A stretch of 52,238 nucleotides of DNA. Origin: a bacterium. Its GTDB lineage: Bacteria; SZUA-182; DTGQ01. Where the stretch lies: the NCBI GenBank assembly GCA_040752695.1, contig JBFMGO010000031.1:1-52238 (forward strand), read 5' to 3'. This document shows positions 1,496-17,675 of this stretch, one piece after another; the stretch's first letter is position 1; every line of letters begins with the position of its first letter. The notes beneath the pieces were generated by a model that had not been told where the DNA came from, did no database searches, and saw only the letters and a program-made list of their open reading frames with translations. The translations under genes were made by a program, and so were the position numbers.

Positions 1496-3504
<2,009 letters not shown>

Positions 3505-3516
3505 TCACTTTTTCCG

Positions 3517-4452
3517 TTAAAATAAGCCGCCGCTTGCTTTTTTGGCAGCCTCCAGCTCGATTACGTTAGCTGCGCTTAAAATTCCTAACAAGTCTAAGGT
3601 TATTAAATCTCTTCGCATCTTGTTGTAATTGATTCTCAATCCCCTCAGGGTTTCCTCTGCCCGGTCGGAAGCCTCTTCCATAGCCATCATTCGGGCTCCC
3701 TGCTCACTGGCATAAGATTCGAGCAGCATATCGAAGACCTGAATCCGAAAGTAAGTCGGGATGAGTTCCTTCAAGATGGAAATGGGATCCGGCTCATAGA
3801 TCCAATCCTCAAAAGATTGGAACTTGCCTGGCGTCGCCAAGATATCGAAGCTCAATGGAAGCATCTTTAAAACAGTCGGCTCTCGTTTAACCGGACTGTA
3901 GAATTTCGTATAGGCACAGTATATTTCTTTGACATCATCATCGTTAAAGAACCTGACCATAGTCACCAATAACTTGATGGCGTCAGAGATTGACACGCCT
4001 TCGTCCGACCATTTCTCCATACCGAGAATAGGAGTTTTCGTTTTTCGCCGAAAAAACTCCTCGCTTTTGATCCCTTTGCAGAAAACTGCACAGGGTTGGC
4101 CAGCTCTTTGTATTTCCTCAATTTTCGCCTGGGCCAGACGGCCTATCTGACCGTTGTAACTCCCGCACATCCCTATGTCGGAGCCGACAACAATGAAAAT
4201 AGCCTTCCCTTCGCCCCGCTTTGCCCTGAACAAGGGAGAAACCTCTGCAATCTTATCCCCAAGTTCAGCCACATAGTAGGATTGGACAAGAACAATCTCC
4301 CTCATTTTCTCTGCATAAGCACGCAATGAGGAAGCCTTGTTTCTCGACCGGGCCAGCTTCGCAGCAGCGACAGTAGACATGGTCTGGGTCGTCGCCTTGA
4401 TATTCTCAACACTACCAATGTGCTGTTTTAATTCGATCAGTTTCTGTGACAT
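3517..4452 (-). CDS. atpG: F-type ATP synthase subunit gamma
   Basis: SDIGMCGSYN and ASEQGARMMAMEEASDRA motifs; position between alpha and beta. Confidence 0.97.
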   Translation of the reverse strand: MSQKLIELKQHIGSVENIKATTQTMSTVAAAKLARSRNKASSLRAYAEKMREIVLVQSYYVAELGDKIAEVSPLFRAKRGEGKAIFIVVGSDIGMCGSYNGQIGRLAQAKIEEIQRAGQPCAVFCKGIKSEEFFRRKTKTPILGMEKWSDEGVSISDAIKLLVTMVRFFNDDDVKEIYCAYTKFYSPVKREPTVLKMLPLSFDILATPGKFQSFEDWIYEPDPISILKELIPTYFRIQVFDMLLESYASEQGARMMAMEEASDRAEETLRGLRINYNKMRRDLITLDLLGILSAANVIELEAAKKASGGLF

Positions 4453-4496: not shown

Positions 4497-6299
4497 TTAG
4501 GCCTTGATAAAGGTATTTTTGAATTCAGTGACTGCCTTCTTCAATAATCCTTCGATCTCCTGGTTAATATCCTTAAGCTCAAGGATTTTCGAGAATATCT
4601 GGGGATAATTCTGGCGAATATAGAGGACCAGTTCTTTTTCAAAATCACTCATCCTCTTGACCGGAACATCATCCACAAAACCATTAACGACCGCAAAAAT
4701 AATGGCGATTTGCTCCTCTACCGGCATTGGTGCGTACTGAACCTGCTTCAGGAGTTCCCGTCCACGCTCACCACGTGCCAATTGTGCTTTGGTAGCCTCG
4801 TCAAGTTCTGCTCCGAATTTTACGAAGGCAGCCATTTCATGGTATTGTGACAAGTCCACGCGCATACGGCCGGCCACTTTTTTCATGGCCTTCAACTGGG
4901 CTGCACCACCGACTCGGGAGACCGACAGACCCACGTTAATTGCAGGCCTGAAACCGGTGTTGAACAATTCGTTTTGAAGATAGATCTGACCATCCGTAAT
5001 CGAGATGACGTTCGTGGAAATATAAGCGGTAACGTCACCGCCCAGAGTTTCAATAATGGGAAGGGCGGTCAGAGACCCCCCTCCTAAATCGTCACGCAGT
5101 TTGGCTGCTCTTTCCAAAAGCCGGGAATGGATGTAGAAAATATCTCCCGGATAAGCCTCTCGACCGATCGGGCGCTTCAGCAAAGCGGACATTTCCCGAT
5201 AGGATATGGCGTGCTTTGAAAGGTCATCGTAAATGACCAGAGCATGCCGGCCCTGCTCCATAAATTCTTCACCAATGGCGCAGGCAGCATAAGGGGCTAA
5301 AAACCGGAAAGCGGTCTGCTCGTTCGATAGGGCCGCCACGATAATGGTATGCTTCATCGCCCCTTCTTTTTGCAGCACGTGAACCACTTTGGCTACGGCT
5401 GCTGCTTTTTGCCCTATGGCGCAATAGATACAGATCAAATCAGAATTCTTCTGATTTAAAATGGTATCCACGGCCAGAGCGGTCTTACCGATTTTTCTGT
5501 CACCGATGATCAGCTCACGCTGTCCTCTTCCGATCGGAACCAGGGCATCGATGGCTTTGAGTCCGGTCTGTACCGGCTCGCAGACCGATTTTCTGAGCAT
5601 AACCCCAGGGGCTTTACGCTCGATCAGTCGGTATTTATTCGATTCGATCTTTCCCTTGCCATCAATCGGAACAGCCATGGCATTGACGATCCTGCCGATC
5701 ATCCCGTCCCCGACGGGAACCTGCATCAACTGACCCGTGCAGGTTACCCGGCTCCCCTCCGGAATCTCTTCCTCGGGGGTGAGCAGAATGCATCCGACAC
5801 TGTTTCGCTCCAGGTTAAATGCCATGCCATAGCCGCCATTTTCAAACTGGACCACCTCATTATATCCAACTTTCCCCAAACCGGAGACGCGGGCGATACC
5901 GTCACCAACTTCCAAAACCACCCCTTCGCGTCCGATATCATCCACTTTAAACGATGGCTCTGTCGCCTCGATAAGCTTTCTGATCTGACTCGTTACGTCA
6001 TCAACCTTGGTTACATCGATTCCGTCCCTCAGCATGCGCAGCTTTTCTTCGAGGGTATCTGCAAAGGAATGTCGAATATCCAGGTTAATCTTCAAGTCTT
6101 CGGTCAGGAAAAGCACACTTCCTTCCTGTTTTGAATCCTCGAAAACCCTGATAGTGATTTTACGGTCAGAGAGTTCAGACAGCTTTTGTTCCAAGCTGTT
6201 CACAAAATTACTGTTGAGGGGCACAGAGGTGAGGAGGACCAGCGGTAATTTACATTCGGAGAGAACCTCTTTCAAATCCTGCTGTAAAATTTCTTTCAT
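4497..6299 (-). CDS. atpA: F-type ATP synthase subunit alpha with ~95-aa N-terminal delta(C-terminal)-like extension
   Basis: [63 protein letters not shown] just upstream of ATG 6299. Confidence 0.97.
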
Positions 6300-6353
6300 A
6301 AACCTTAGCCTTCCTTGATGATTCCTTCTTCAAGAATCCACTGGAATTAAAAG

Positions 6354-6854
6354 TTAATTAGTCATTCCCCCTCGGAGATAAGACTGTTTAAGGCTCTGCC
6401 CAACGGCACTTTCAATTAATGCCTTCTGGTAATCCTCATTGATCGATCCATACATGACTTTTCTGGAAGCCAGGGATACCAGGTCGATCAGCATTGCGTA
6501 CATCTCCCGCCGAATTTCCTCTTTTTCCCGCTCAATACCCGCCTTGGCTTCCTGAGCGATTCTGCTCGCCTCAGCCTTGGCCTGAACCAGGAGTTCATCG
6601 GCATTTTCCTGAGCCTTTTTTCGAATTACATCTGCATCCTGCCGAGCCGCGAGGATAATTTTTTCCCCGCTCTCCTTCAATTTAGCTACTTCTGCTCTGG
6701 CCGCATCAGCGGTTGCCAGTTCAGCGGCAACTTTGGCCTTTCTCTCTTCCAGGGTGTCCATGATCGGCCTGAAGAAGAGCTTTTTCATAATAACCAGAAG
6801 TATTAAAAAGTTCAGTATGCTAAAGAGAAATTTAAAAAAACTGAATCCTAGCAT
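6354..6854 (-). CDS. atpF: F-type ATP synthase subunit b
   Basis: N-terminal TM helix NFLILLVIMKKLFFRPI followed by an Ala/Glu/Lys-rich coiled coil; operon position. Confidence 0.93.
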   Translation of the reverse strand: MLGFSFFKFLFSILNFLILLVIMKKLFFRPIMDTLEERKAKVAAELATADAARAEVAKLKESGEKIILAARQDADVIRKKAQENADELLVQAKAEASRIAQEAKAGIEREKEEIRREMYAMLIDLVSLASRKVMYGSINEDYQKALIESAVGQSLKQSYLRGGMTN

Positions 6855-6935: not shown

Positions 6936-7190
6936 TCAATGGATAAATGGATTTCCGAAAAGAAGAATCAAGGAAATCAGCAAGCAGTAAATAGCAAGAG
7001 CTTCAATAAGAGCCATAGCGATAAGCATGGTGGTAAAGGTTCTTCCGGCCATCTCCGGTTGTCTGGCAATACCTTCCAGTGCAGCCATTCCGATTTTTGA
7101 CATACCTAATGCAGCTCCCAGAGCCCCAATAGCAATAGCAATCACAGCACTAAAGGTTGTAACCATTTTCAGCACGATCATACTATCCAT
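6936..7190 (-). CDS. atpE: F-type ATP synthase subunit c
   Basis: Two TM helices, ARQPE loop, conserved Glu in MALIEALAIY. Confidence 0.97.
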   Translation of the reverse strand: MDSMIVLKMVTTFSAVIAIAIGALGAALGMSKIGMAALEGIARQPEMAGRTFTTMLIAMALIEALAIYCLLISLILLFGNPFIH

Positions 7191-7256: not shown

Positions 7257-8030
7257 TTAGTGATGAATAGCAGCTTCCTCTTTCAGGTAAAAAGCGCTCA
7301 ACATGCAAAAGACGATTGTTTGAATTATGGCGGCCAGGATATCGATCAAAAGGATCATGAGGGGAATAAAGAGCGGGATCATCATCTTCCAGGTGCCCAG
7401 GGCAACCTGTGAAACCATGGCATATACCGTATGCTCTCCGAAGATGTTTCCAAAAAGTCGAAAAGAGAGCGACAGCAGCCTGGCAGCATTGTCCATAACA
7501 TGAAGCACAATCAATAGGCCCACAATGATTCTCATCATTGAGGAATATAAAAAGCCACTCAGCTTTTTGAGAAAGCCGGACTTTCCGTCACCTTCCTCAC
7601 CTTCCGCCTTTTCGGTCAGTTCAGGGTAAGGATTAACCCAGTCACCCAGGTATTTTTTGATGCCTTTTATCTTGATGCTGAGGATATGAACGCCGACCAG
7701 GGAAATGACAGCCAGTGCAACCGTTGTGCTTAAGTCCCCTGTAGGGCATTGGGCGTAAGGCAGGAGAAGAAAAAAGTTGGAAATAAAAACAAAGATGAAA
7801 AATGTTCCGATGAAGGGCAGGACCGTCGGCATGAGTGATTTGCCGAGCTCAGGCTCAAACGTGCCGAGTAAAAACTCGACTATGGCCTCCGCTATATTTT
7901 GAAGACCTTCCGGAACCCCCAGCGTTTTTTTGCTGAGAGCCAGTTTTGAAAAAAGAATCAATCCTCCTGTTACGAGCAGGGTCCAAAAAATTGATTCGCC
8001 TTGACTGAGAAAATGAATACCAGATCCCAT
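7257..8030 (-). CDS. atpB: F-type ATP synthase subunit a
   Basis: PEGLQNIAE, PTGDLSTT, LSLSFRLFGNI (essential Arg), IQTIVFCMLS. Confidence 0.95.
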   Translation of the reverse strand: MGSGIHFLSQGESIFWTLLVTGGLILFSKLALSKKTLGVPEGLQNIAEAIVEFLLGTFEPELGKSLMPTVLPFIGTFFIFVFISNFFLLLPYAQCPTGDLSTTVALAVISLVGVHILSIKIKGIKKYLGDWVNPYPELTEKAEGEEGDGKSGFLKKLSGFLYSSMMRIIVGLLIVLHVMDNAARLLSLSFRLFGNIFGEHTVYAMVSQVALGTWKMMIPLFIPLMILLIDILAAIIQTIVFCMLSAFYLKEEAAIHH

Positions 8031-8410: not shown

Positions 8411-10390
8411 TCACTCCTTATGAGATTCATCGATGAGCCAGATATTGACCATAGTAAAGGAAACCGCTTTATCAAAGACCGAAAGGACCTTGCGCACGGG
8501 TACCAAAAGAAGAATACACAGATCGTAGCCTTTCGCATACCAGTAGCCCAGGGAAAATTTCTCCGGAATGGAAAGGTCAAACAAATGGATGCCGTATTCA
8601 AACATGAAATAAATCAGCGTTCCGATAATCACGATACCAACGCTCTGGAGGTTGTGCAAGACCTGTGAATTGAGCATGGATACCGTTCGCGGGTCATAGA
8701 GAAGGGGAATGGTGGATTTCAGGGTTCCGGAAAGAGCATGGCTGTTATAGATGGCATGGTAGGCATGAGAGGCCGGGTTGAAGCCAAAAAGGGCCAAAAG
8801 GGGACCGATGATATATTCAAGCATGAGATTGGGCCATATTCCCACCACGACGATGACCAGGCCAAGAGAAACGAGGGAAATTTTCATGGCCCATGTCTCT
8901 TTGGGGAGCACGGCCTTTGACGAGACTTCATCCGCTGGCGGGGCCAGGAATACGGCAATGAACATCTTGGCGATATAGCACAGAGTGCCCGATGCGGTGA
9001 TCAGAAAGACAAGCTCAGCGAACCTCAGCCAGGGATCGGGCTGATGAAAGGGGGAAAAGTGGATAGAGTGTTCATAGGCCTCTACAATGGCGTGATGCAA
9101 AATGGTTTTACTGGCAAAACCGCCGAGCCCCGGAAACCCGGCAATACTGAAGGCCGCGATCAGGTAGATAAAAGCGGTTACCGGCAGGTGTTTCAAAAGG
9201 CCGCCAAGATGATCCATGCGCAATTCCCGCGTAGAGAAATACACCACTCCGATGGTTAAGAAGAGTGCGGACTTAAACAGAGCATGGTTGATTACGTGAT
9301 ACAGGCTTCCAGCCATGCCCATGGCTCCCTCGTTTCCCATGTAAAGGGCGCATCCGATCCCCATGACGATGTATCCCATCTGGCTGACGGTAGAATAGGC
9401 CAGGACTCTTTTGCAATTTTTGTCCAGCAGCGCATTCACCATTCCGCCGAACATGGTCAATATTCCGGTCCAGATCAGGATATAGCCCAACACCGCCATA
9501 ATGTGTCCTGTTTCGGCCGTAACCGGTGTAAAAAGAGTGTAAATGCTTCTGATGATTCCGTAGACACCTACCTTGACAATCAGTCCTGAGAGTATGGCAC
9601 TTGCGGGTGTCGGGGCAATCGGATGGGCCTTGGGCAGCCAGACATGGAGGAAAAAGATGCCCGCCTTGATGCCGAAACCGGCAATAAACCCGAAGGTAAT
9701 GAGGTATTTCAAAAAGATCGGCATCCGGCTGCTTACCAATCCGCCGAGCGGTTCCAGGGCTGTCGTTCCCGTATAGAAGAAGAGGATGAAAATCGATCCG
9801 AGAACGAGGAGGCCGCCGATGATGCTCATCAGGATATACAACCTGCCGGCAGCCATGGACTCTTTGGATTCTTCGTGAATGACCAGTACATAGGAAAAAA
9901 GAGTCATCAGCTCAAAAAAGACAAAGAGGGAAAAAAAGTCCCTGGTCAGGAACACGGCCATATTGGCCCCGAAGGTGAGAAGCATGAAGAGAAAGAATCT
10001 GCCTTGAGCATGCTCGTGGCTCATATAGCTGGTGGCGAAAAGGCTTGCGAGTGTCCAGACAAAAGCGGTAATGAGTGCGAATAAAAACCCCAGGCCGTCG
10101 AGGCCGAGGTCAAGGTGTACTCCCAGAATGGAGGGCAGGTTGTACTCCATGCCCTTGTAAAGGTGTCCGCCGATGGTTATCCCCAAGACCGCAGCCTGAT
10201 ACAGCGAAACTACCAGGGCCAGCGTAAAGAGGGTAGTCAGGACGACCAGGGTATTTCGTATTTTTTTATTTTTATGAGAAAGTGCCGTGAGCGCCGCCCC
10301 TATGAAAGGAACCATGATGATAATGGCCACAAGGGACGCCTTTGGGCTGATGGCAGAGGTTAAAGGCTGGATTATCTGTGTATTAATCAT
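8411..10390 (-). CDS. Proton-conducting antiporter-like membrane subunit (MrpA/D, NuoL, HyfB-like), large, cassette 1
   Basis: FFELMT, GIKAGIFFLHVWLPKAHP, KRVLAYSTVSQMGY, NHALFKSALF, GFASK. Confidence 0.92.
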   Translation of the reverse strand: MINTQIIQPLTSAISPKASLVAIIIMVPFIGAALTALSHKNKKIRNTLVVLTTLFTLALVVSLYQAAVLGITIGGHLYKGMEYNLPSILGVHLDLGLDGLGFLFALITAFVWTLASLFATSYMSHEHAQGRFFLFMLLTFGANMAVFLTRDFFSLFVFFELMTLFSYVLVIHEESKESMAAGRLYILMSIIGGLLVLGSIFILFFYTGTTALEPLGGLVSSRMPIFLKYLITFGFIAGFGIKAGIFFLHVWLPKAHPIAPTPASAILSGLIVKVGVYGIIRSIYTLFTPVTAETGHIMAVLGYILIWTGILTMFGGMVNALLDKNCKRVLAYSTVSQMGYIVMGIGCALYMGNEGAMGMAGSLYHVINHALFKSALFLTIGVVYFSTRELRMDHLGGLLKHLPVTAFIYLIAAFSIAGFPGLGGFASKTILHHAIVEAYEHSIHFSPFHQPDPWLRFAELVFLITASGTLCYIAKMFIAVFLAPPADEVSSKAVLPKETWAMKISLVSLGLVIVVVGIWPNLMLEYIIGPLLALFGFNPASHAYHAIYNSHALSGTLKSTIPLLYDPRTVSMLNSQVLHNLQSVGIVIIGTLIYFMFEYGIHLFDLSIPEKFSLGYWYAKGYDLCILLLVPVRKVLSVFDKAVSFTMVNIWLIDESHKE

Positions 10391-10421
10391 GCTTTTGTAT
10401 CTCCATGAAGAAATCTTATCA

Positions 10422-11948
10422 TCATTTGATATAAGACGTTGCCACGAGTCTTGCCAAACCTAAGGGGAGCTCAGGAAATATGGCAAAGAATATAATGCCG
10501 AGGGTTAAAACCAGCATGGGCAAAAGCATGGTCCAATTCGGATCTATGATCTTGCGTGCTCCTGCCTGCGGGTTTTGGTGTACATGACCTGATGCAGGCT
10601 CTCCACCCTGTACCTTGCCAAACCAGCCATCGATGATAACCGGGCCGTAGTAGATCGCATTCAATATGCTGCTGAGGATAAGACTGCCGATAATGACCAG
10701 CGAGCCCCCTGAGCTGATAACCCTTCCTTGAGCCGAGCTTAAGGCACCTATAGCCAGAAACCACTTGCTGAGGAATCCGACAAAGGGTGGAAAGCCGATC
10801 ATGGAGCAGGCGGCAATCGTAAAAATCAGCATCGTCAGGGGCATTTTCCGGCTGATTCCTTTCATGTCGCTGATGTTTTTTATGCCGGTCTGATAGGCAA
10901 TCGCTCCGGCGCACATGAAGAGCGCACCTTTCATCATGGCATGATTGAAAATGTGAAGAACGCTGCCGATCAGTCCTTCTCTTGAAAGCAGGGTTGCTCC
11001 CAGGATAACATAGCCGATCTGGGCTATGGAGGAATAAGCGAGCAGCCTTTTCAATTCGGTCTGAACCAGCGCGGCAACCGAACCCATAATCATGGTTACG
11101 ACAGCCACCACCATGATGACCGTATTGAATTGGTGATCCATAACCAGGGTTGAGCCATACACTGCATAGATGGTCCTGATGATTCCGTAAGCCCCTGCTT
11201 TAATCATCACGGCAGAGAGCAGAACGCTGGCCGGGGTTGGAGCTATGGGGTGGGCCTCAGGCAGCCAGACATGGACGGGAAACATCCCTGCTTTCACGGC
11301 AAAGCCAAATATATAGGCCCAGAAGATCCAGACAAAATAAGGGCTTGTCTGTAATATGACCAGTCCCTTTCCCGACAGATCCACGCTGCCTGTCTGAAGA
11401 TAGGTCATGATAATAGCCCCCAAAAGAACCAGGCCGCCGATCACTCCCATGAACAGGTACTTTGCCCCTGCCTGCATGGCCCTTTGACTTTCCTCGTGAA
11501 TGACCAGGAAATAGGAGAGGACACTCATGATCTCAAAAAAGATAAACAAGCTGACGAGGTTTCCGGTCGTTACCATTCCCAGCATGCCGAATAAGGAGAA
11601 AAGCGAGAAGGTATGAAAGCGGCTCTGGTCGTGCTCTTTTTTCATATACTCGATCGAGTACCACGAGGCCATAAGCCACACGAAAGCTATCGTCACCATC
11701 ACGAAGTAACCCAGGGCATCGAGGTAAAGGGAAAAAGGAATCTCAAGGCCGATGTCGATCTGGTACTTGGCTACCTGTGCACTGTGTATGTAAGGGTAGA
11801 TCAGGAATGCAAAAGCCAGAATCGCACCTGAAACGGCCGTAGTAACGATGCCTCCATTGCGGTCTGAAAAATTTTTCCCGAGAGCTCTCAGGATGGCTAC
11901 GCCGATAAGGGGCAAGACGAGAATAAAAATCATGTAGTTAGTGATCAT
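10422..11948 (-). CDS. MrpD-like antiporter-type membrane subunit, cassette 1
   Basis: FFEIMS, KAGMFPVHVWLPEAHP, KRLLAYSSIAQIGY, GFPPFVGFLSKW; start at ATG 11948 after GGAGG. Confidence 0.92.
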   Translation of the reverse strand: MITNYMIFILVLPLIGVAILRALGKNFSDRNGGIVTTAVSGAILAFAFLIYPYIHSAQVAKYQIDIGLEIPFSLYLDALGYFVMVTIAFVWLMASWYSIEYMKKEHDQSRFHTFSLFSLFGMLGMVTTGNLVSLFIFFEIMSVLSYFLVIHEESQRAMQAGAKYLFMGVIGGLVLLGAIIMTYLQTGSVDLSGKGLVILQTSPYFVWIFWAYIFGFAVKAGMFPVHVWLPEAHPIAPTPASVLLSAVMIKAGAYGIIRTIYAVYGSTLVMDHQFNTVIMVVAVVTMIMGSVAALVQTELKRLLAYSSIAQIGYVILGATLLSREGLIGSVLHIFNHAMMKGALFMCAGAIAYQTGIKNISDMKGISRKMPLTMLIFTIAACSMIGFPPFVGFLSKWFLAIGALSSAQGRVISSGGSLVIIGSLILSSILNAIYYGPVIIDGWFGKVQGGEPASGHVHQNPQAGARKIIDPNWTMLLPMLVLTLGIIFFAIFPELPLGLARLVATSYIK

Positions 11949-12051
11949 CTTTCCTCCAAGCTCATCTCTTTCGTTAACCTCTACTCTTGCTGGGGAAAAG
12001 GGAAGGGAAGTCAAAAGGGGCTGAAAGTTAAGGTTTTTATGTTCTTGTCTT

Positions 12052-12276
12052 TTAGGATCTTGCAATCCATAAGTTCATGAGGATAAAGAGAATAATGGCC
12101 GAAAGAATAAAAAAAACGTAGTTTCTCCAATATCCTGTATGAAGGGTCCTGGCCGCTTTTTTGCTCAGCAGGGCAAACCCGGACCCAAGGCCAAGGACGG
12201 CACGATTCAACGATCTTTCGAATCGATAGGTGGCAGAAGCCACCCCCTGTAACGTAAATGAAAACTTCGTTTTCAA
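12052..12276 (-). CDS. Small membrane protein resembling the NuoL/MrpA C-terminal helix + last TM, cassette 1
   Basis: TTG start 7 nt after AAGGAGG; LHTGYWRNY followed by a hydrophobic helix; paralog at 17849-18112. Confidence 0.75.
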   Translation of the reverse strand: MKTKFSFTLQGVASATYRFERSLNRAVLGLGSGFALLSKKAARTLHTGYWRNYVFFILSAIILFILMNLWIARS

Positions 12277-12379
12277 GAGGTATCCTCCTTCATCAATAGT
12301 GTTGTGCTTCGATTTCCGGGCCTTAATGTGCAGTTACGTGTGCGGGATAGTAATAAAACACTGTTATAAAACCTTTCTT

Positions 12380-12409
12380 ATTATGTCACTATATATTCTC
12401 AACTGTCAA
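12380..12409 (-). promoter_or_regulatory. Sigma70-type promoter of cassette 1
   Basis: Minus strand TTGACA-18 nt-CATAAT with TG extension. Confidence 0.65.
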
Positions 12410-12720
12410 GTGCCAAATTCACTCTTTTATTACAAAGCCGTTGTTACTTTTGTTAATTTACCATCGATTACGCTGAGTAACGAGGTGAAGTGCCATTTAG
12501 ACGATCTGTGCCCGCCGAGATGATATCTTTATGGATAATTGTTGGATTTTTTATCCAGGATTATCTTGACTAAAAGGATAAATAATGATAATGATTACAT
12601 GATATCTAACATTATGGATGCTTTTTATCGTGTTGCTCGCTTTGAGCCCGGGAATCAGCCTGGTACACCTTTAATCGGAAACCAAAAAATCAAAAAACTC
12701 TAAGTGTGGAGAAAAGACCT

Positions 12721-14025
12721 ATGCTTCTTGAAAAAATACAGGCACGAACAGCCCAGATAGGGATTATCGGACTTGGTTATGTCGGTCTGCCATTGGTCAG
12801 AGAGTTTCATCGAAGCGGCTTTCAGGTGACCGGCTTTGATGTGGACAAGACCAAGGTGGATGCACTCATGTCAGGGAAGAGCTACATCAAGCACATCCCT
12901 TCAGAAATGATTCAGAAAATGGTTTCTGATGGGCGATTTCAGGCAACAACTGATTTTTCCCGGTTAACGGAAATGGATGCGGTTGTCATCTGTGTTCCAA
13001 CCCCTCTCAATGTCAACCGGGAGCCGGATATGTCTTATGTCTTCGGCACAACCAGGACCATCGCCAGATATCTGCGCAAAGGGCAGTTGATCGCTCTGGA
13101 AAGCACGACCTATCCGGGGACCACGGATGAGGACATGCGGGCGATCCTTGAAGAGTCGGGACTTATAGCCGGACGTGACTTTCATCTGGCCTTTTCGCCC
13201 GAGAGGGAAGACCCGAATAATGCCCAATACTCGACCAGAACCATCCCCAAGGTCGTGGGAGGCTACACGCCGCAGTGCCTTGAGGTGGCCCTCAATCTGT
13301 ACAATTGCATCATCGAAAAAACCGTTCCGGTATCCTCGACCAGGGTGGCCGAAGCCACCAAACTGCTCGAAAATATTTTCCGGGCAGTGAATATTGCCCT
13401 GGTCAATGAGCTGAAAATGCTGTTTGACCGGATGGGGATAGATGTCTGGGAGGTGATCAATGCCGCCGCCACCAAGCCCTTCGGCTACACACCCTTTTAT
13501 CCGGGACCGGGCCTTGGCGGCCACTGTATCCCTATCGATCCCTTTTATCTTACCTGGAAGGCACGGGAGTATGACTTCAATACCCGCTTCATTGAATTGG
13601 CCGGGGAAATAAACACCTCCATGCCTTACTATGTCATGCAAAAAACCATGGATGCCCTGAATGAACAGGGCAAAAGCATCAAGGGGGCCAGAATCCTGGT
13701 CCTTGGGATTGCCTATAAGAAAAATATCGATGATCCGAGAGAATCACCCTCTTTTAAGATAATCGAGCTGTATCAGGGCAAAGGAGCCATTGTGGACTAC
13801 AATGATCCGTATGTTCCCGATCTGCCGAAAATGAGGCACCATTCTCTGGAAATGAAATCCGTTCCGCTCACCGAGCACACGGTTTCGGCTTACGATGCCG
13901 TGGTCATCCTGACCGATCATTCCGATTACGACTACTCGTGGCTGTATTCCAAGGCCAAGCTGATCATCGATACGAGAAATGCCACGCGAACTCCCCTGAA
14001 GGATAAAAAGGTGGTAAAGGCATAA
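12721..14025 (+). CDS. Nucleotide-sugar dehydrogenase (UDP-GlcNAc 6-dehydrogenase/WbpA-like)
   Basis: [35 protein letters not shown] (catalytic Cys), DDPRESP. Confidence 0.95.
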
Positions 14026-14047
14026 TACCAGAGCGCAAGAACAAGAG

Positions 14048-14092
14048 AAAAAAACGGCTGCCTGATGCCGGGCATCAGGCAGCCGTTTTTTT
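14048..14092. terminator. Bidirectional intrinsic terminator
   Basis: aaaaaaacggctgcctgatgccgggcatcaggcagccgttttttt, a long GC-rich stem with A/T runs between convergent genes. Confidence 0.88.
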
Positions 14093-14108
14093 GTTACCTG
14101 TTTTTGTC

Positions 14109-16148
14109 TCATAGGGATTCAATGCCCGATTGTGCAAGGAGAGGAACCCGCTCTTCTTCTTGTTCTCCTTCAGCCTCTTGAGCCTGCCAGAAGTCCACCA
14201 GAAGGAAGGATAGAAAGCCGTTGAGCACAAATTCCAAACCGGCACACAGTTGTGAGAAGATAAAAACAACCAGCCGGCTGATGACGACATACCAGTTTTT
14301 CAGGTTAAGGTATTCAGGGACCCTTATGGAAAACATCTTCCCGAAAATACCGATGAGGTACCACCCGACGGTCGAAAGGGCCACGATTCCAACTCCCGAA
14401 ACATTATGCAGGACCTCGTGAGAGAACATCGATCCCAGGGAAAAGTTGACGGGATTATACAGGAGAGGAAGAGCGGATCTGCCCGTATTCACATCGAAAA
14501 TCATCTTGTAGGCATGCGATCCGCTTTGCAGTCCGAATCCAGCCAGTGCAGGCCCGATCAGCTTTTCCAGCAAAAAGTTGGGGAACAGGCCGATGAGGAT
14601 AATGCTGATAATCATCGGAATGAAGGCAGCCCTCATGGTATTGGTTTCCGGCTCTGCATTTTTCAGGTAATCGGGTCGTTTCCCCATATAGACCAGGTAA
14701 AAAGAGCGGGTGGTATAACACAAGGTCATACCTGCGGATATGATAAACATGATCTCCGCCCACTTCAGCCAGGCAATCCCGGCGGCATGGGCATGGCCAA
14801 AGTGTGCGATGGCCTCGGTAATGGCATGGTGTACCATGGTCTTGCTGGCAAACCCGCCCGTAAAGGGAATACCGGCAATGCTCAAGACCGCAAAGAGAAA
14901 GGTGAGAGCGGTAATGGGCATATTCTTTCGCATTCCGCCCATTTTCTCGATATAATCCTCGTTCGTCCGGCTGCAGGTTATTCCGATGCACAGGAAGAAG
15001 GCTGACTTAAAGACGGCATGGTTCATAATGTAATACAAAGAACCAGCCAGGCCCATGGCGCCTTCTGTACCGAGCACCATGCAGCAGCCAAGGCCAAAAA
15101 CGATAAAGCCCATCTGGCTCACCGTGGAGAAAGCGAACATTCTCTTGAAATGGGTAGTCAGGAGCGCCGGCAGAGCGCCGAAAAACATGGTCAGGACTCC
15201 CAGCCAGATGACTCCCACCCCTATCATGTTCATCTGCGCCCCATGGGTCAGGGGCATGGCTGGATAGAGCCGGAAAATGGTTCGAAGCATTCCGTAGATG
15301 CCGACTTTCACGACCAGTCCGGAGAGCACGGCATGGGCTGGCGGCGGTGCCACGGGGTGAGCTACGGGCAGCCATATATGAACCAGCCATAATCCGGCTT
15401 TAATGGCAAATCCTGCTACCAGAAGGAAGAAAATGAGAAACCTGATCCGGGGGGTGAGCACGAGACCGGGCAAGGCGCTGGTGGTATATCGGGTCAGTTC
15501 CGCCGAAGGGTAGAGGGAGATATTTCCCGTATAGCCGTACATCAGTATCGTGCCAAAGAGCATGCAAAGCCCGCCGATGACACTCACATAAAGAAAGAGC
15601 TTGCCCGCAAAGGTGGCGTCGCCGGTTTCGTCATGGGCGACCAGGGCATAGCAGGTAATGGTGACAAATTCGAAGAAAATAAAGAGAGAGAAAAAATCCC
15701 GGACCAGATAAATGCCAAGACACGATGCCAGACCGAGCATGTAGAAGGTGAAAAACCTGCCTTTCGCATGTCTTTTAACCATATAGCTGGTGCCGAAAGT
15801 TGCAGAGAGGGTCCAGATAAAGCTTGTGATCAGGGCAAAGATCAATCCTGCACTATCTGCGCCGAAGCGCAGGTGAAATCCCATAATCCCAGGGAGTGAC
15901 AGGTCCAGCCCCTTGTAGAAAACTCCCTCGATGTAAACTCCGCGGACTACAGGATGGTACAGGGCGAGGATAAGCCCGAGACTCACAAGGCAGGTAAGAA
16001 TAATGACGGCATTCTGGGCAGCCCACGCTTTGCACCTGGCGCAGACAGCCACTAAAATCGCCCCGATGACCGGAACCAGGACGATCACCAAAGGCATCAG
16101 GGCAATGGAACTTTCTTTTAGGGTAATAGGCAACTCGGCTGGGGTCAC
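14109..16148 (-). CDS. Proton-conducting antiporter-like membrane subunit, large, cassette 2 (paralog of 8411-10390)
   Basis: FFEFVT, AIKAGLWLVHIWLPVAHP, KRMFAFSTVSQMG, GFASK; GTG start after AAGGAGG. Confidence 0.92.
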   Translation of the reverse strand: MTPAELPITLKESSIALMPLVIVLVPVIGAILVAVCARCKAWAAQNAVIILTCLVSLGLILALYHPVVRGVYIEGVFYKGLDLSLPGIMGFHLRFGADSAGLIFALITSFIWTLSATFGTSYMVKRHAKGRFFTFYMLGLASCLGIYLVRDFFSLFIFFEFVTITCYALVAHDETGDATFAGKLFLYVSVIGGLCMLFGTILMYGYTGNISLYPSAELTRYTTSALPGLVLTPRIRFLIFFLLVAGFAIKAGLWLVHIWLPVAHPVAPPPAHAVLSGLVVKVGIYGMLRTIFRLYPAMPLTHGAQMNMIGVGVIWLGVLTMFFGALPALLTTHFKRMFAFSTVSQMGFIVFGLGCCMVLGTEGAMGLAGSLYYIMNHAVFKSAFFLCIGITCSRTNEDYIEKMGGMRKNMPITALTFLFAVLSIAGIPFTGGFASKTMVHHAITEAIAHFGHAHAAGIAWLKWAEIMFIISAGMTLCYTTRSFYLVYMGKRPDYLKNAEPETNTMRAAFIPMIISIILIGLFPNFLLEKLIGPALAGFGLQSGSHAYKMIFDVNTGRSALPLLYNPVNFSLGSMFSHEVLHNVSGVGIVALSTVGWYLIGIFGKMFSIRVPEYLNLKNWYVVISRLVVFIFSQLCAGLEFVLNGFLSFLLVDFWQAQEAEGEQEEERVPLLAQSGIESL

Positions 16149-16166
16149 TTTCTTGCCTCCTTTTTT

Positions 16167-17675
16167 TTAAAGAATTTGATTAACCGCTAGCCCGATCAAC
16201 CTCATCGGCCATTGAGCGTAGATCGCAAACACGATCATGGAAATAACCAGAACGAAAATCGGTACGATCATGATCCATGATGGATCACACCTCTGTACTG
16301 CCATATCCGGCAGCGGATGATGGTCGTGAGGATCCTGCGGACAGCTTCCAAACCAGCCATCCATCACGATCGGTCCGTAATATACTGCGGTGAGCAGGCT
16401 GCTTAAGATCAAGACTCCGATAATCACGATACCCGTGGTCTGGGAAATGACATTCATGCTGGCCGCCTGCAAAGCACCCACGCCAAGGATCCACTTGCTG
16501 ACAAAGCCGACAAAGGGCGGGAACCCGACCATGGAAAGGGCCGCCAGGGTGAAGCACAGCATGGTCAGCGGCATTTTCTGCCCTATTCCCTTCATGTCTT
16601 TTATTTCCCGGATACCGGTTTTATAGATAATGGCTCCTGCGCATAAAAAGAGAACCGTTTTGGCCAGGGCATGAGCCATGATGTGATAGATCCCGCCCGC
16701 CAGCCCCTTGCCGGAAAGCAGGATAACGCCGAGGATAACGTACCCGATTTGCGACATGGAGGAGTAGGCGAGCATGCGTTTTATTTCCTTCTGGGCAATA
16801 GCCAGTCCGGAACCCAGGATAATGGTGATGATGCTGATAATGAGGAGGATTTTTCCCGTAGCGGGTGTGTTGATCCGGCCTGCCCCGAAAATGCCGTATA
16901 CGGTCTTGATAATACCAAAGGCTCCCGCCTTTACCATAACCGCTGACAGAAGGGCCGTAGCCGGACACGGAGCAGCCGGATACGCATACGGCCTCCAGAT
17001 ATGCAGAGGGAATATTCCGGCTTTCACGGCAAAACCGATTATGAAGCCCCAGAAAAGAAAAAGAAAATAAGGACTGCTCCGCAGGACGGCATAACCTCCG
17101 TTCGTAAAATCAAAGGTGCCGGTAATGTTCCGCGTAAGGATAATGGACAATAAAAGGATGATTCCTCCAATAATTCCCATGAACAGATACTTGCTTCCGG
17201 CAGCCAGGGAGAAAGCGCTTTCATCGTGTACGATCAGCATATAGGAGAGAATGGCCATGATTTCGAAGAAAAAGTAGAGAGTTAACATATTGCCGCCAAG
17301 AACGATTCCCATAATGCCAGAGAGTGAAAAGAGCGAGAAACACTGATAGCGCGCCTTATGTTTATCGTTCATCAGGTATTCTATGGCATACCATGATGAG
17401 ATGGTCCAAATGAGAGAACTGACCAGGGCCATAAATATACCCAGAGCATCGGCCCTGAAAGAAAAAAGGGCGGGAATCGTTCCGATCTGCCAGGCAACCT
17501 CAATAATCCGGCCCTGACCGACGGCCGGATAAAGGCAGGCGGTGAATACGAAGGTCAGTCCGCAGATGAGGGTTGCGGCTACGTTGCTGAGCATTTCGTA
17601 AAACAATGAGAGCCAATAGATAAATAATGCTCCAATAAGCGGTGTAAAGATTGCTATAAACAAAACACTCTTCAT
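16167..17675 (-). CDS. MrpD-like antiporter-type membrane subunit, cassette 2 (paralog of 10422-11948)
   Basis: FFEIMA, KAGIFPLHIWRP, KRMLAYSSMSQIGY, GFPPFVGFVSKW. Confidence 0.92.
   Translation of the reverse strand: MKSVLFIAIFTPLIGALFIYWLSLFYEMLSNVAATLICGLTFVFTACLYPAVGQGRIIEVAWQIGTIPALFSFRADALGIFMALVSSLIWTISSWYAIEYLMNDKHKARYQCFSLFSLSGIMGIVLGGNMLTLYFFFEIMAILSYMLIVHDESAFSLAAGSKYLFMGIIGGIILLLSIILTRNITGTFDFTNGGYAVLRSSPYFLFLFWGFIIGFAVKAGIFPLHIWRPYAYPAAPCPATALLSAVMVKAGAFGIIKTVYGIFGAGRINTPATGKILLIISIITIILGSGLAIAQKEIKRMLAYSSMSQIGYVILGVILLSGKGLAGGIYHIMAHALAKTVLFLCAGAIIYKTGIREIKDMKGIGQKMPLTMLCFTLAALSMVGFPPFVGFVSKWILGVGALQAASMNVISQTTGIVIIGVLILSSLLTAVYYGPIVMDGWFGSCPQDPHDHHPLPDMAVQRCDPSWIMIVPIFVLVISMIVFAIYAQWPMRLIGLAVNQIL

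Follow-up and report, generated by a model that had tools for sequence, protein, structure and literature searches.

We analysed a stretch of bacterial DNA of 52,238 nucleotides (contig JBFMGO010000031.1 of assembly GCA_040752695.1, referred to below as the window), which carries on its minus strand an F-type ATP synthase operon without a delta gene. The alpha subunit gene of this operon, atpA (4497..6299), is a natural delta(deltaN)-alpha fusion, in that the delta subunit's C-terminal domain and a complete alpha are encoded in one frame, with the alpha N-terminal helix kept. It is a new and diverged example of the recently described delta-alpha fusion type. By analogy with an engineered enzyme of the same architecture, the fused domain very probably acts as an anchor for the peripheral stalk. 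The statement as a whole, in which a stalk-anchor fusion in a second, delta-less operon would give an enzyme with more than one stalk, is offered tentatively, and we rate it a little short of an even chance.

The atpA gene is a single frame of 600 residues that starts at 6299, while atpF, which encodes the sole b subunit of the operon, ends at 6354. The spacer between them (6300..6353) is 54 bp long, in agreement with the preliminary description of this DNA, and is too short for a delta gene. A Shine-Dalgarno-like GGAAGG/TAAGG is found at the end of the spacer, just 5' of the atpA ATG. Residues 1-97 of alpha (6009..6299) form the delta/OSCP C-terminal-like extension, as identified by HHalign, fold searches and the ratio of nonsynonymous to synonymous substitution rates (dN/dS); within it, residues 20-88 (6036-6242) are the core that HHalign aligned to delta. 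These are followed by a short linker and the retained alpha N-terminal helix (residues 98-125; 5925..6008), and then by the alpha core with the stop codon (4497..5924), comprising the beta-barrel, nucleotide-binding and C-terminal domains (PF02874, PF00006, PF00306; TIGR00962). The atpA model TIGR00962 aligned alpha residues 98-598 with model positions 3-502, scoring 741.6 bits against a cut-off of 484.45, and approximately 95-97 residues precede the part that it covers. The preliminary description had reported about 95 extra N-terminal residues in an uninterrupted frame, and this was borne out by the 600-residue frame, by the start of the TIGR00962 match at residue 98 and by the position of its quoted peptide inside the frame. 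The extension continues into a stretch that aligned with the canonical alpha of this genome over its residues 3-30, and a helix was predicted at residues 99-112. Because residues 98-125 align with canonical alpha residues 3-30, the alpha N-terminal helix is kept.

A lost stop codon, a frameshift or a wrongly assigned start could produce such a frame artificially, in which case the true alpha would begin near residue 98. When the 110-residue N-terminus was used as a query, the extension was matched in 12 of 41 related genomes at 38-89% identity, always within an open frame of 604-649 residues. Of the 20 species genomes covered for the phylum, 12 were likewise positive (E ≤ 0.001) with a profile of the extension, and the match lay each time in an open frame within the same length range. 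By family, it was present in all five genomes of f1, four of the six of f2, the single genomes of f3 and f4, and none of the seven of f5-f8; both f2 genomes without a match were 63% complete. In the protein collection, 48 clusters matched the extension at E ≤ 0.01, 46 of which were of alpha length (573-719 residues) and two of which were fragments. Where these clusters were named, they were annotated just as 'subunit alpha'. An open frame is seen in 12 genomes and likewise in 46 proteins of alpha length, among 48 clusters that come from independent assemblies. Codons 1-97 gave dN/dS values of 0.081 and 0.059 against two congeners, compared with 0.025 and 0.011 for the alpha core, and the extension is real and under purifying selection.

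The existence of an ATG within the extension (Met89) was the one feature found on the side of an artefact. Met89 is not conserved, and an internal start at this codon was therefore rejected; a ribosome-binding-like site also precedes the first ATG. Since the frame is open across genomes, dN/dS is low (0.06-0.08) and Met89 is not conserved, a lost stop or a wrong start is excluded for practical purposes, and we regard an artefact as extremely improbable. The preliminary description had envisaged the same fusion in other genomes, which was found as above, as well as a lost stop or a real start near the canonical alpha N-terminus, which these observations contradict.

Homology of the extension to the delta/OSCP C-terminal domain was assessed by profile-profile alignment, using a delta alignment of 27 sequences from the canonical operons of related and unrelated genomes. 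A 17-sequence profile of the extension placed residues 20-88 onto delta 111-178 with 94.6% probability (E 6.8e-8). The score of 47.5 can be compared with 17.7 for the reversed delta alignment and at most 14.0 for ten column shuffles. A 26-sequence profile gave 95.0% probability (E 4e-8); for these two profiles, real scores were 47-49 against 10-18 for the controls. A 12-sequence profile aligned onto delta 113-170 (P 1.7e-4). Approximately 19 residues only precede the matched core and the alignment spans delta 111-178 alone, showing that the N-terminal helical domain of delta is absent. The register found by HHalign is the one, TSVPL ... INLD, that had been proposed for the delta pattern in the preliminary description.

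Distant relatives of the extension, for example P0008, P0010 and P0012, were added through an exhaustive profile search of 1.84 billion representatives. This search returned eight proteins at E ≤ 0.001, among them P0008 (E 4.6e-17) and P0012 (E 1.1e-4), and the full-length fused alphas were hidden in the representative library behind ordinary alpha representatives. Two long proteins, P0007 (2450 residues) and P0011 (1551 residues), were set aside as repeat proteins matched via low-complexity repeats. P0008 and P0012 matched positions 104-165 of Pfam OSCP with E-values of 1.3e-3 and 3.7e-3, just under the threshold. The window domain is unambiguously related to the domains of the sister clades. 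The profile-profile alignment together with the fold rankings supports the identification of residues ∼15-92 as a copy, now diverged, of the delta/OSCP C-terminal domain. The delta/OSCP C-terminal-like nature claimed for the extension at the outset was thus upheld by the HHalign probabilities of 94.6-95% (E 4e-8 to 7e-8), by the sub-threshold OSCP matches of its relatives and by fold rankings that include entry 9JC1.

The predicted fold was obtained from two AlphaFold models, both of which presented a strand-helix-strand-strand-strand-helix arrangement followed by the alpha N-terminal helix. A Foldseek search with the first model placed chains of 173-382 residues from F-type ATP synthase entries in eight of the ten best rows (E 0.018-0.098). 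With the second model, entry 9JC1 ('Engineering of ATP synthase') supplied the chains at ranks 1, 2 and 4 (E 0.016-0.044 over 103 columns). Among 48,161 representative chains compared by VIA-align, two only reached Z ≥ 5, namely 6n2y_I of Bacillus PS3 (Z 5.8), with model residues 18-83 on chain residues 107-173, and the mycobacterial b-delta chain 7jg5_d (Z 5.7); the chloroplast, Chloroflexus and mitochondrial counterparts came next. Our reading of 6n2y_I and like chains as delta is based on chain length and on the range 105-178 given for the PS3 delta C-domain in the consulted text of PMC12229609. VIA-align values of Z < 8 can reflect a common arrangement, and the ranking was taken as support rather than proof. 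A search of the ESM Atlas with residues 1-97 returned no usable match.

The preliminary description had further stated that there is no atpH gene. This stood for the window operon, whose genes gave no Pfam match to delta, but is untrue of the genome as a whole. Searching the assembly in six frames with PF00213 revealed one full delta (E 1.6e-32) on another contig (C9 of genome G000; L003, L077), within a canonical operon encoding a (257 residues), c (74), b (176), delta (188), alpha (517), gamma and beta. A second PF00213 match (E 0.21) was CoaD and was discarded. Because this contig holds a canonical, delta-bearing operon, the fused operon represents the second F-type enzyme of the genome. 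PF00213 was matched in 11 of the 12 fusion-bearing genomes, always on a contig other than that of the fused alpha, and 10 of these matches were near full length; the twelfth genome, which is 76% complete, had no match. Genomes G014-G019 of the same class (families f5-f8; 88-97% complete) had neither a PF00213 match nor the fused extension. The genome under study also encodes two V/A-type ATPase B subunits and the flagellar FliI (contigs C15, C141 and C2; L006, L007 and L005), giving up to four rotary ATPase loci together with the two F-type operons.

The two operons differ in their c subunits. The c subunit of the canonical operon has 74 residues and a glycine-repeat first helix, whereas that of the window (atpE, 6936..7190, minus strand; 84 residues; PF00137, E 1.4e-16) has a different small-residue motif in its first helix and one conserved carboxylate in its second helix. 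A serine or threonine after the glutamate, a pattern characteristic of sodium-binding c-rings, is present in neither. As neither c subunit shows this pattern, protons were assumed to be the coupling ion.

Several observations weigh against the identification of the extension as a delta-derived stalk anchor. A profile built from the phylum alone reached an HHalign probability of just 49-52% (P 1.4e-4 to 1.7e-4), and the strong HHalign value therefore rests on the sister clades. Residues 1-110 had no Pfam OSCP (PF00213) match even at E ≤ 10, with two weak and unrelated matches only, and an hmmsearch of the extension profiles against PDB sequences found no delta or other ATP synthase chain. When aligned as HHalign places it, the window protein lacks the glycine pair of the delta consensus. 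The AlphaFold models had mean pLDDT (predicted local distance difference test) values of 58.3 and 55.5, rising to ∼70 over residues 15-75, and the deeper alignment of 29 rows gave no gain (55.5 against 58.3). Foldseek returned no match at E ≤ 0.001 (best 0.016), and the VIA-align Z values lay below the safe mark of 8. Finally, this genome has a canonical delta, and at least 10 of the 12 fusion-bearing genomes likewise encode one of full length. The canonical delta may be used in trans, or the fused enzyme may be a purely single-stalk one.

These points bear on the possibility that the delta-derived extension no longer docks b and has acquired another role, for example in assembly, in regulation or with another partner, with the stator held through the canonical delta or a b-alpha contact. 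Such a loss of docking would suit a domain that has diverged beyond a Pfam match and lost its glycine pair, and a protein that retains the alpha N-terminal helix, which binds delta in ordinary enzymes, in a genome that encodes a canonical delta elsewhere. It agrees less well with the strong purifying selection on the strand-helix-strand-strand-strand-helix core and with the finding that none of the kin genomes, nor the sister clade, has a delta in the fused operon; the fusion-bearing genome without any PF00213 match also speaks against it, though that genome is just 76% complete. We consider this explanation improbable. The presumed partner of the fused domain is the product of atpF (6354..6854, minus strand; 166 residues; PF00430, E 6.9e-17; TIGR01144, 77.7 bits against a cut-off of 65.5), the C-terminal third of which is conserved among 11 kin sequences. 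A complex prediction of the extension and helix (122 residues) with two copies of b residues 95-166 gave a median score of 0.30 against a mark of 0.32; it was run without controls and argues neither for nor against binding.

The closest known counterpart is an engineered enzyme. In the work of Ueno et al. (Nat Commun 2025; PMC12229609, PDB 9JC1), as far as its consulted text describes, residues 2-104 of Bacillus PS3 delta were deleted and residues 105-178 were fused to alpha. According to the same text, the C-domain of delta holds the top of b2, while its N-domain, seated on the F1 axis, limits the enzyme to one stalk. The fused PS3 enzyme is described there as having up to three stalks, approximately two a-subunits on average and an H+/ATP of 5.8 compared with 3.0; single-stalk particles were also seen, the stalks being partly lost. 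The window protein resembles this design in carrying the delta C-terminal domain only, a short linker and a complete alpha, with no free delta in the operon. The VIA-align match to PS3 delta (6n2y_I residues 107-173) also falls inside the engineered segment 105-178. In contrast to the engineered protein, the window fusion is natural, has ∼12-16% identity in the structural alignments and belongs to a second operon, in a genome that has a canonical one too. The engineered enzyme additionally lacks the epsilon C-terminal domain, which the window operon keeps.

Natural delta-alpha fusions have also been put in print. The consulted text of PMC12229609 mentions fusions without the delta N-domain in an Acidaminococcus fermentans operon and two UniProt entries, and proposes natural multi-stalk enzymes. 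A preprint of October 2026 (bioRxiv 10.64898/2026.10.01.756066), in the part available, describes delta, or its C-terminal part only, at the N-terminus of alpha. The preliminary description had given b-delta as the known kind of fusion, and these sources show that it was incomplete in this respect. The window lineage is unlike the printed natural cases in belonging to an uncultured phylum and in having a domain too diverged for Pfam, a distinction drawn from their descriptions and not from sequences. In the literature searched, we found no experimental study of a natural fused enzyme, nor any on this lineage.

Other F-type enzymes share individual features with the window protein. The Chloroflexus aurantiacus enzyme (PNAS 2025; PMC12002316, PDB 9ITJ) is reported in the consulted text as a natural two-stalk F1Fo of composition alpha3beta3-gamma-epsilon-delta2-a2-b4-c10, with a delta C-domain made of a four-stranded sheet and two helices. 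This topology is the one predicted for the window extension, and the Chloroflexus chain 9itj_S ranked fourth in the VIA-align search (Z 4.6). As described there, however, the Chloroflexus delta is free and has a shortened N-domain that dimerises on the axis, whereas the window protein has no N-domain and its C-domain is covalently joined to alpha. In the b-delta fusions (mycobacterial AtpH; N-ATPase AtpF, TIGR03321), a delta C-terminal domain is likewise joined to a neighbouring stator subunit; there the partner is b, with one copy per stalk, while here it is alpha, with three copies per head. An N-ATPase identity was rejected, as the TIGR03324 score of 609.5 bits lies below the cut-off of 750.5 and the genes are not arranged in the N-type order. 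Relative to canonical delta/OSCP (PF00213), the C-terminal domain is homologous, but the N-terminal helical domain is missing and the window domain is not a free subunit.

The reading of the fused domain as a built-in stalk anchor follows from the architecture that the window protein shares with the engineered PS3 fusion. The delta-C-like domain, joined by its short linker to a normal alpha helix and body, would provide three built-in stalk anchors per F1 head, and nothing would occupy the three-fold axis of F1. Each enzyme could then bear more than one b2-a stalk, as the engineered PS3 enzyme does, and the fused enzyme may serve as a second 'gear' of higher ion/ATP ratio alongside the canonical single-stalk enzyme of the cell. 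By analogy, the possibility of more than one stalk agrees with the experiment on the same design, as reported in the consulted text of PMC12229609. The presence of a canonical operon alongside is consistent with labour being divided between two enzymes, one of low and one of high ratio. For the fused enzyme, b binding, stalk number, ion/ATP ratio and physiological role are what we infer here.

A single peripheral stalk is a serious competitor to this arrangement. One of the three domains would hold b2-a and two would stay empty, the fusion would amount to an alternative means of attaching the stator when no free delta is present, and the c-ring alone would determine the ion/ATP ratio. In the operon, a and b are encoded by a single gene each, at ordinary spacing, and the engineered enzyme also gave single-stalk particles with partial stalk loss in the account consulted. 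In that same account, however, the design in PS3, with nothing else altered, yielded up to three stalks and an average of approximately two a-subunits, and a canonical enzyme kept alongside fits a functional difference better than a redundant attachment. We consider a single stalk with two idle anchors to be quite possible; more than one stalk with a higher ion/ATP ratio is the assignment that we favour, with a confidence somewhat below one half.

Phylogenetic analysis can reveal whether the fused alphas share a history. A maximum-likelihood tree was calculated from 26 fused and 23 canonical alphas, with a beta sequence as outgroup, over 420 columns anchored on the P-loop, with the extension columns unused. 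All 26 fused alphas fell on one side of a 100/100 branch and the canonical alphas of the phylum formed a separate 100/100 clade, the bootstrap being not fully settled. In a first quick tree the support for the fused clade was 80, and four canonical rows and L019 had been dropped as they contained no anchor motif; the P-loop anchoring kept all 50 rows. Inside the fused clade, the grouping departs from the family codes that the canonical alphas follow, with for example the f1 genomes G004 and G005 placed beside f2 and f4, and this points to transfer or differential retention. The fused clade also occurs in other environmental lineages, and one sister-clade protein bears a label that assigns it to a Betaproteobacteria metagenome-assembled genome (MAG).

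The gene order of the fused operon was compared across the relatives. In the kin loci, the gene immediately before fused alpha is either b (order a-c-b-alpha) or c (order a-b-c-alpha). In the sister 616-residue clade, metagenome contigs presented a-c-b-fused alpha-gamma-beta-epsilon in the 7 of 17 loci with enough flank, and a canonical delta query gave no match in these contigs.

A broader picture, which we regard as speculative and rather less probable than not, would be that of a natural gearbox. In this picture, a canonical single-stalk enzyme would be accompanied by a delta(deltaN)-alpha enzyme with two or three proton-conducting stalks, which would allow ATP synthesis where the membrane potential is insufficient for the canonical enzyme. 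The fused operon would then be one ancient family, moved between phyla and within the phylum, and elaborated with tandem delta-C domains on 719-residue alphas and with ∼430-residue a-subunits that have a partial internal repeat.

Variants of both subunits were observed among the relatives. P0010, P0014 and P0016 (719 residues) are alphas with two tandem delta-C-like domains ahead of the alpha body, and among the fused alphas they group in a 100/100 clade of their own. Four kin operons of the a-b-c-fused alpha type (L054:172-1467, L056:3442-4722, L057:3291-4574 and L059:3344-4657) encode a single-frame a-subunit of ∼430 residues. These a-subunits contain two ATP-synt_A stretches: a partial a-like repeat stands at the N-terminus, and a complete a that bears the conserved arginine motif comes after it. 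The repeat of L056 closes with lysine at the place of the essential arginine motif. The c subunit of the a-b-c type operons (L056:5320-5676) has 118 residues, approximately 50 of them extra at the N-terminus and including a hydrophobic stretch. In a canonical operon of the same order (L039:1432-3501; contig C91 of G006), a complete delta (PF00213 4-171) and a complete alpha are joined, without an intervening stop, in an open frame that spans at least 690 residues. If correct, it is a delta-alpha fusion of full length, seen in one MAG only, where a sequencing error is possible.

The H+/ATP ratio is a basic bioenergetic parameter, and for a long time c-ring size was regarded as its sole determinant. 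In 2025, the engineered delta(deltaN)-alpha enzyme and the two-stalk Chloroflexus enzyme showed, according to the consulted texts, that stalk number can change this ratio. The idea is already in print, and what is added here is a conserved natural family in uncultured bacteria that had been annotated merely as 'subunit alpha'. The fused and canonical operons are, furthermore, found in one genome, making a direct comparison within one organism possible, and the sequence diversity is sufficient to pick a candidate for expression or cryo-EM. If multi-stalk assembly is true, it would explain energy conservation at low membrane potential in such organisms.

The remaining genes of the window operon were assigned by Pfam. 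The operon has the order a-c-b-alpha-gamma-beta-epsilon on the minus strand, each gene with the expected Pfam family. Its first gene is atpB (7257..8030), encoding Fo subunit a of 257 residues (PF00119 ATP-synt_A, E 3.4e-41). Downstream of atpA lie atpG for gamma (3517..4452; PF00231, E 8.8e-65), atpD for beta (1972..3498; PF00006, PF02874, PF22919) and atpC for epsilon (1496..1975; PF02823, E 4.5e-17). The start of atpD is uncertain, being either TTG at 3498 or ATG at 3468.

Four NuoL/MrpA-D-like genes (8411-17675, minus strand; PF00361; 659, 547, 679 and 502 residues) are located directly upstream of the operon on the same strand, and a UDP-glucose dehydrogenase gene on the opposite strand interrupts them. 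These antiporter-like genes were rejected as part of the system, as the kin loci examined have none of them upstream of the fused operon. In beta (1972-3498; compared with L051-L053), approximately 35 residues stand ahead of the beta-barrel, and ∼30-38 do so across this genus and two kin; the other kin have a shorter and unrelated lead.

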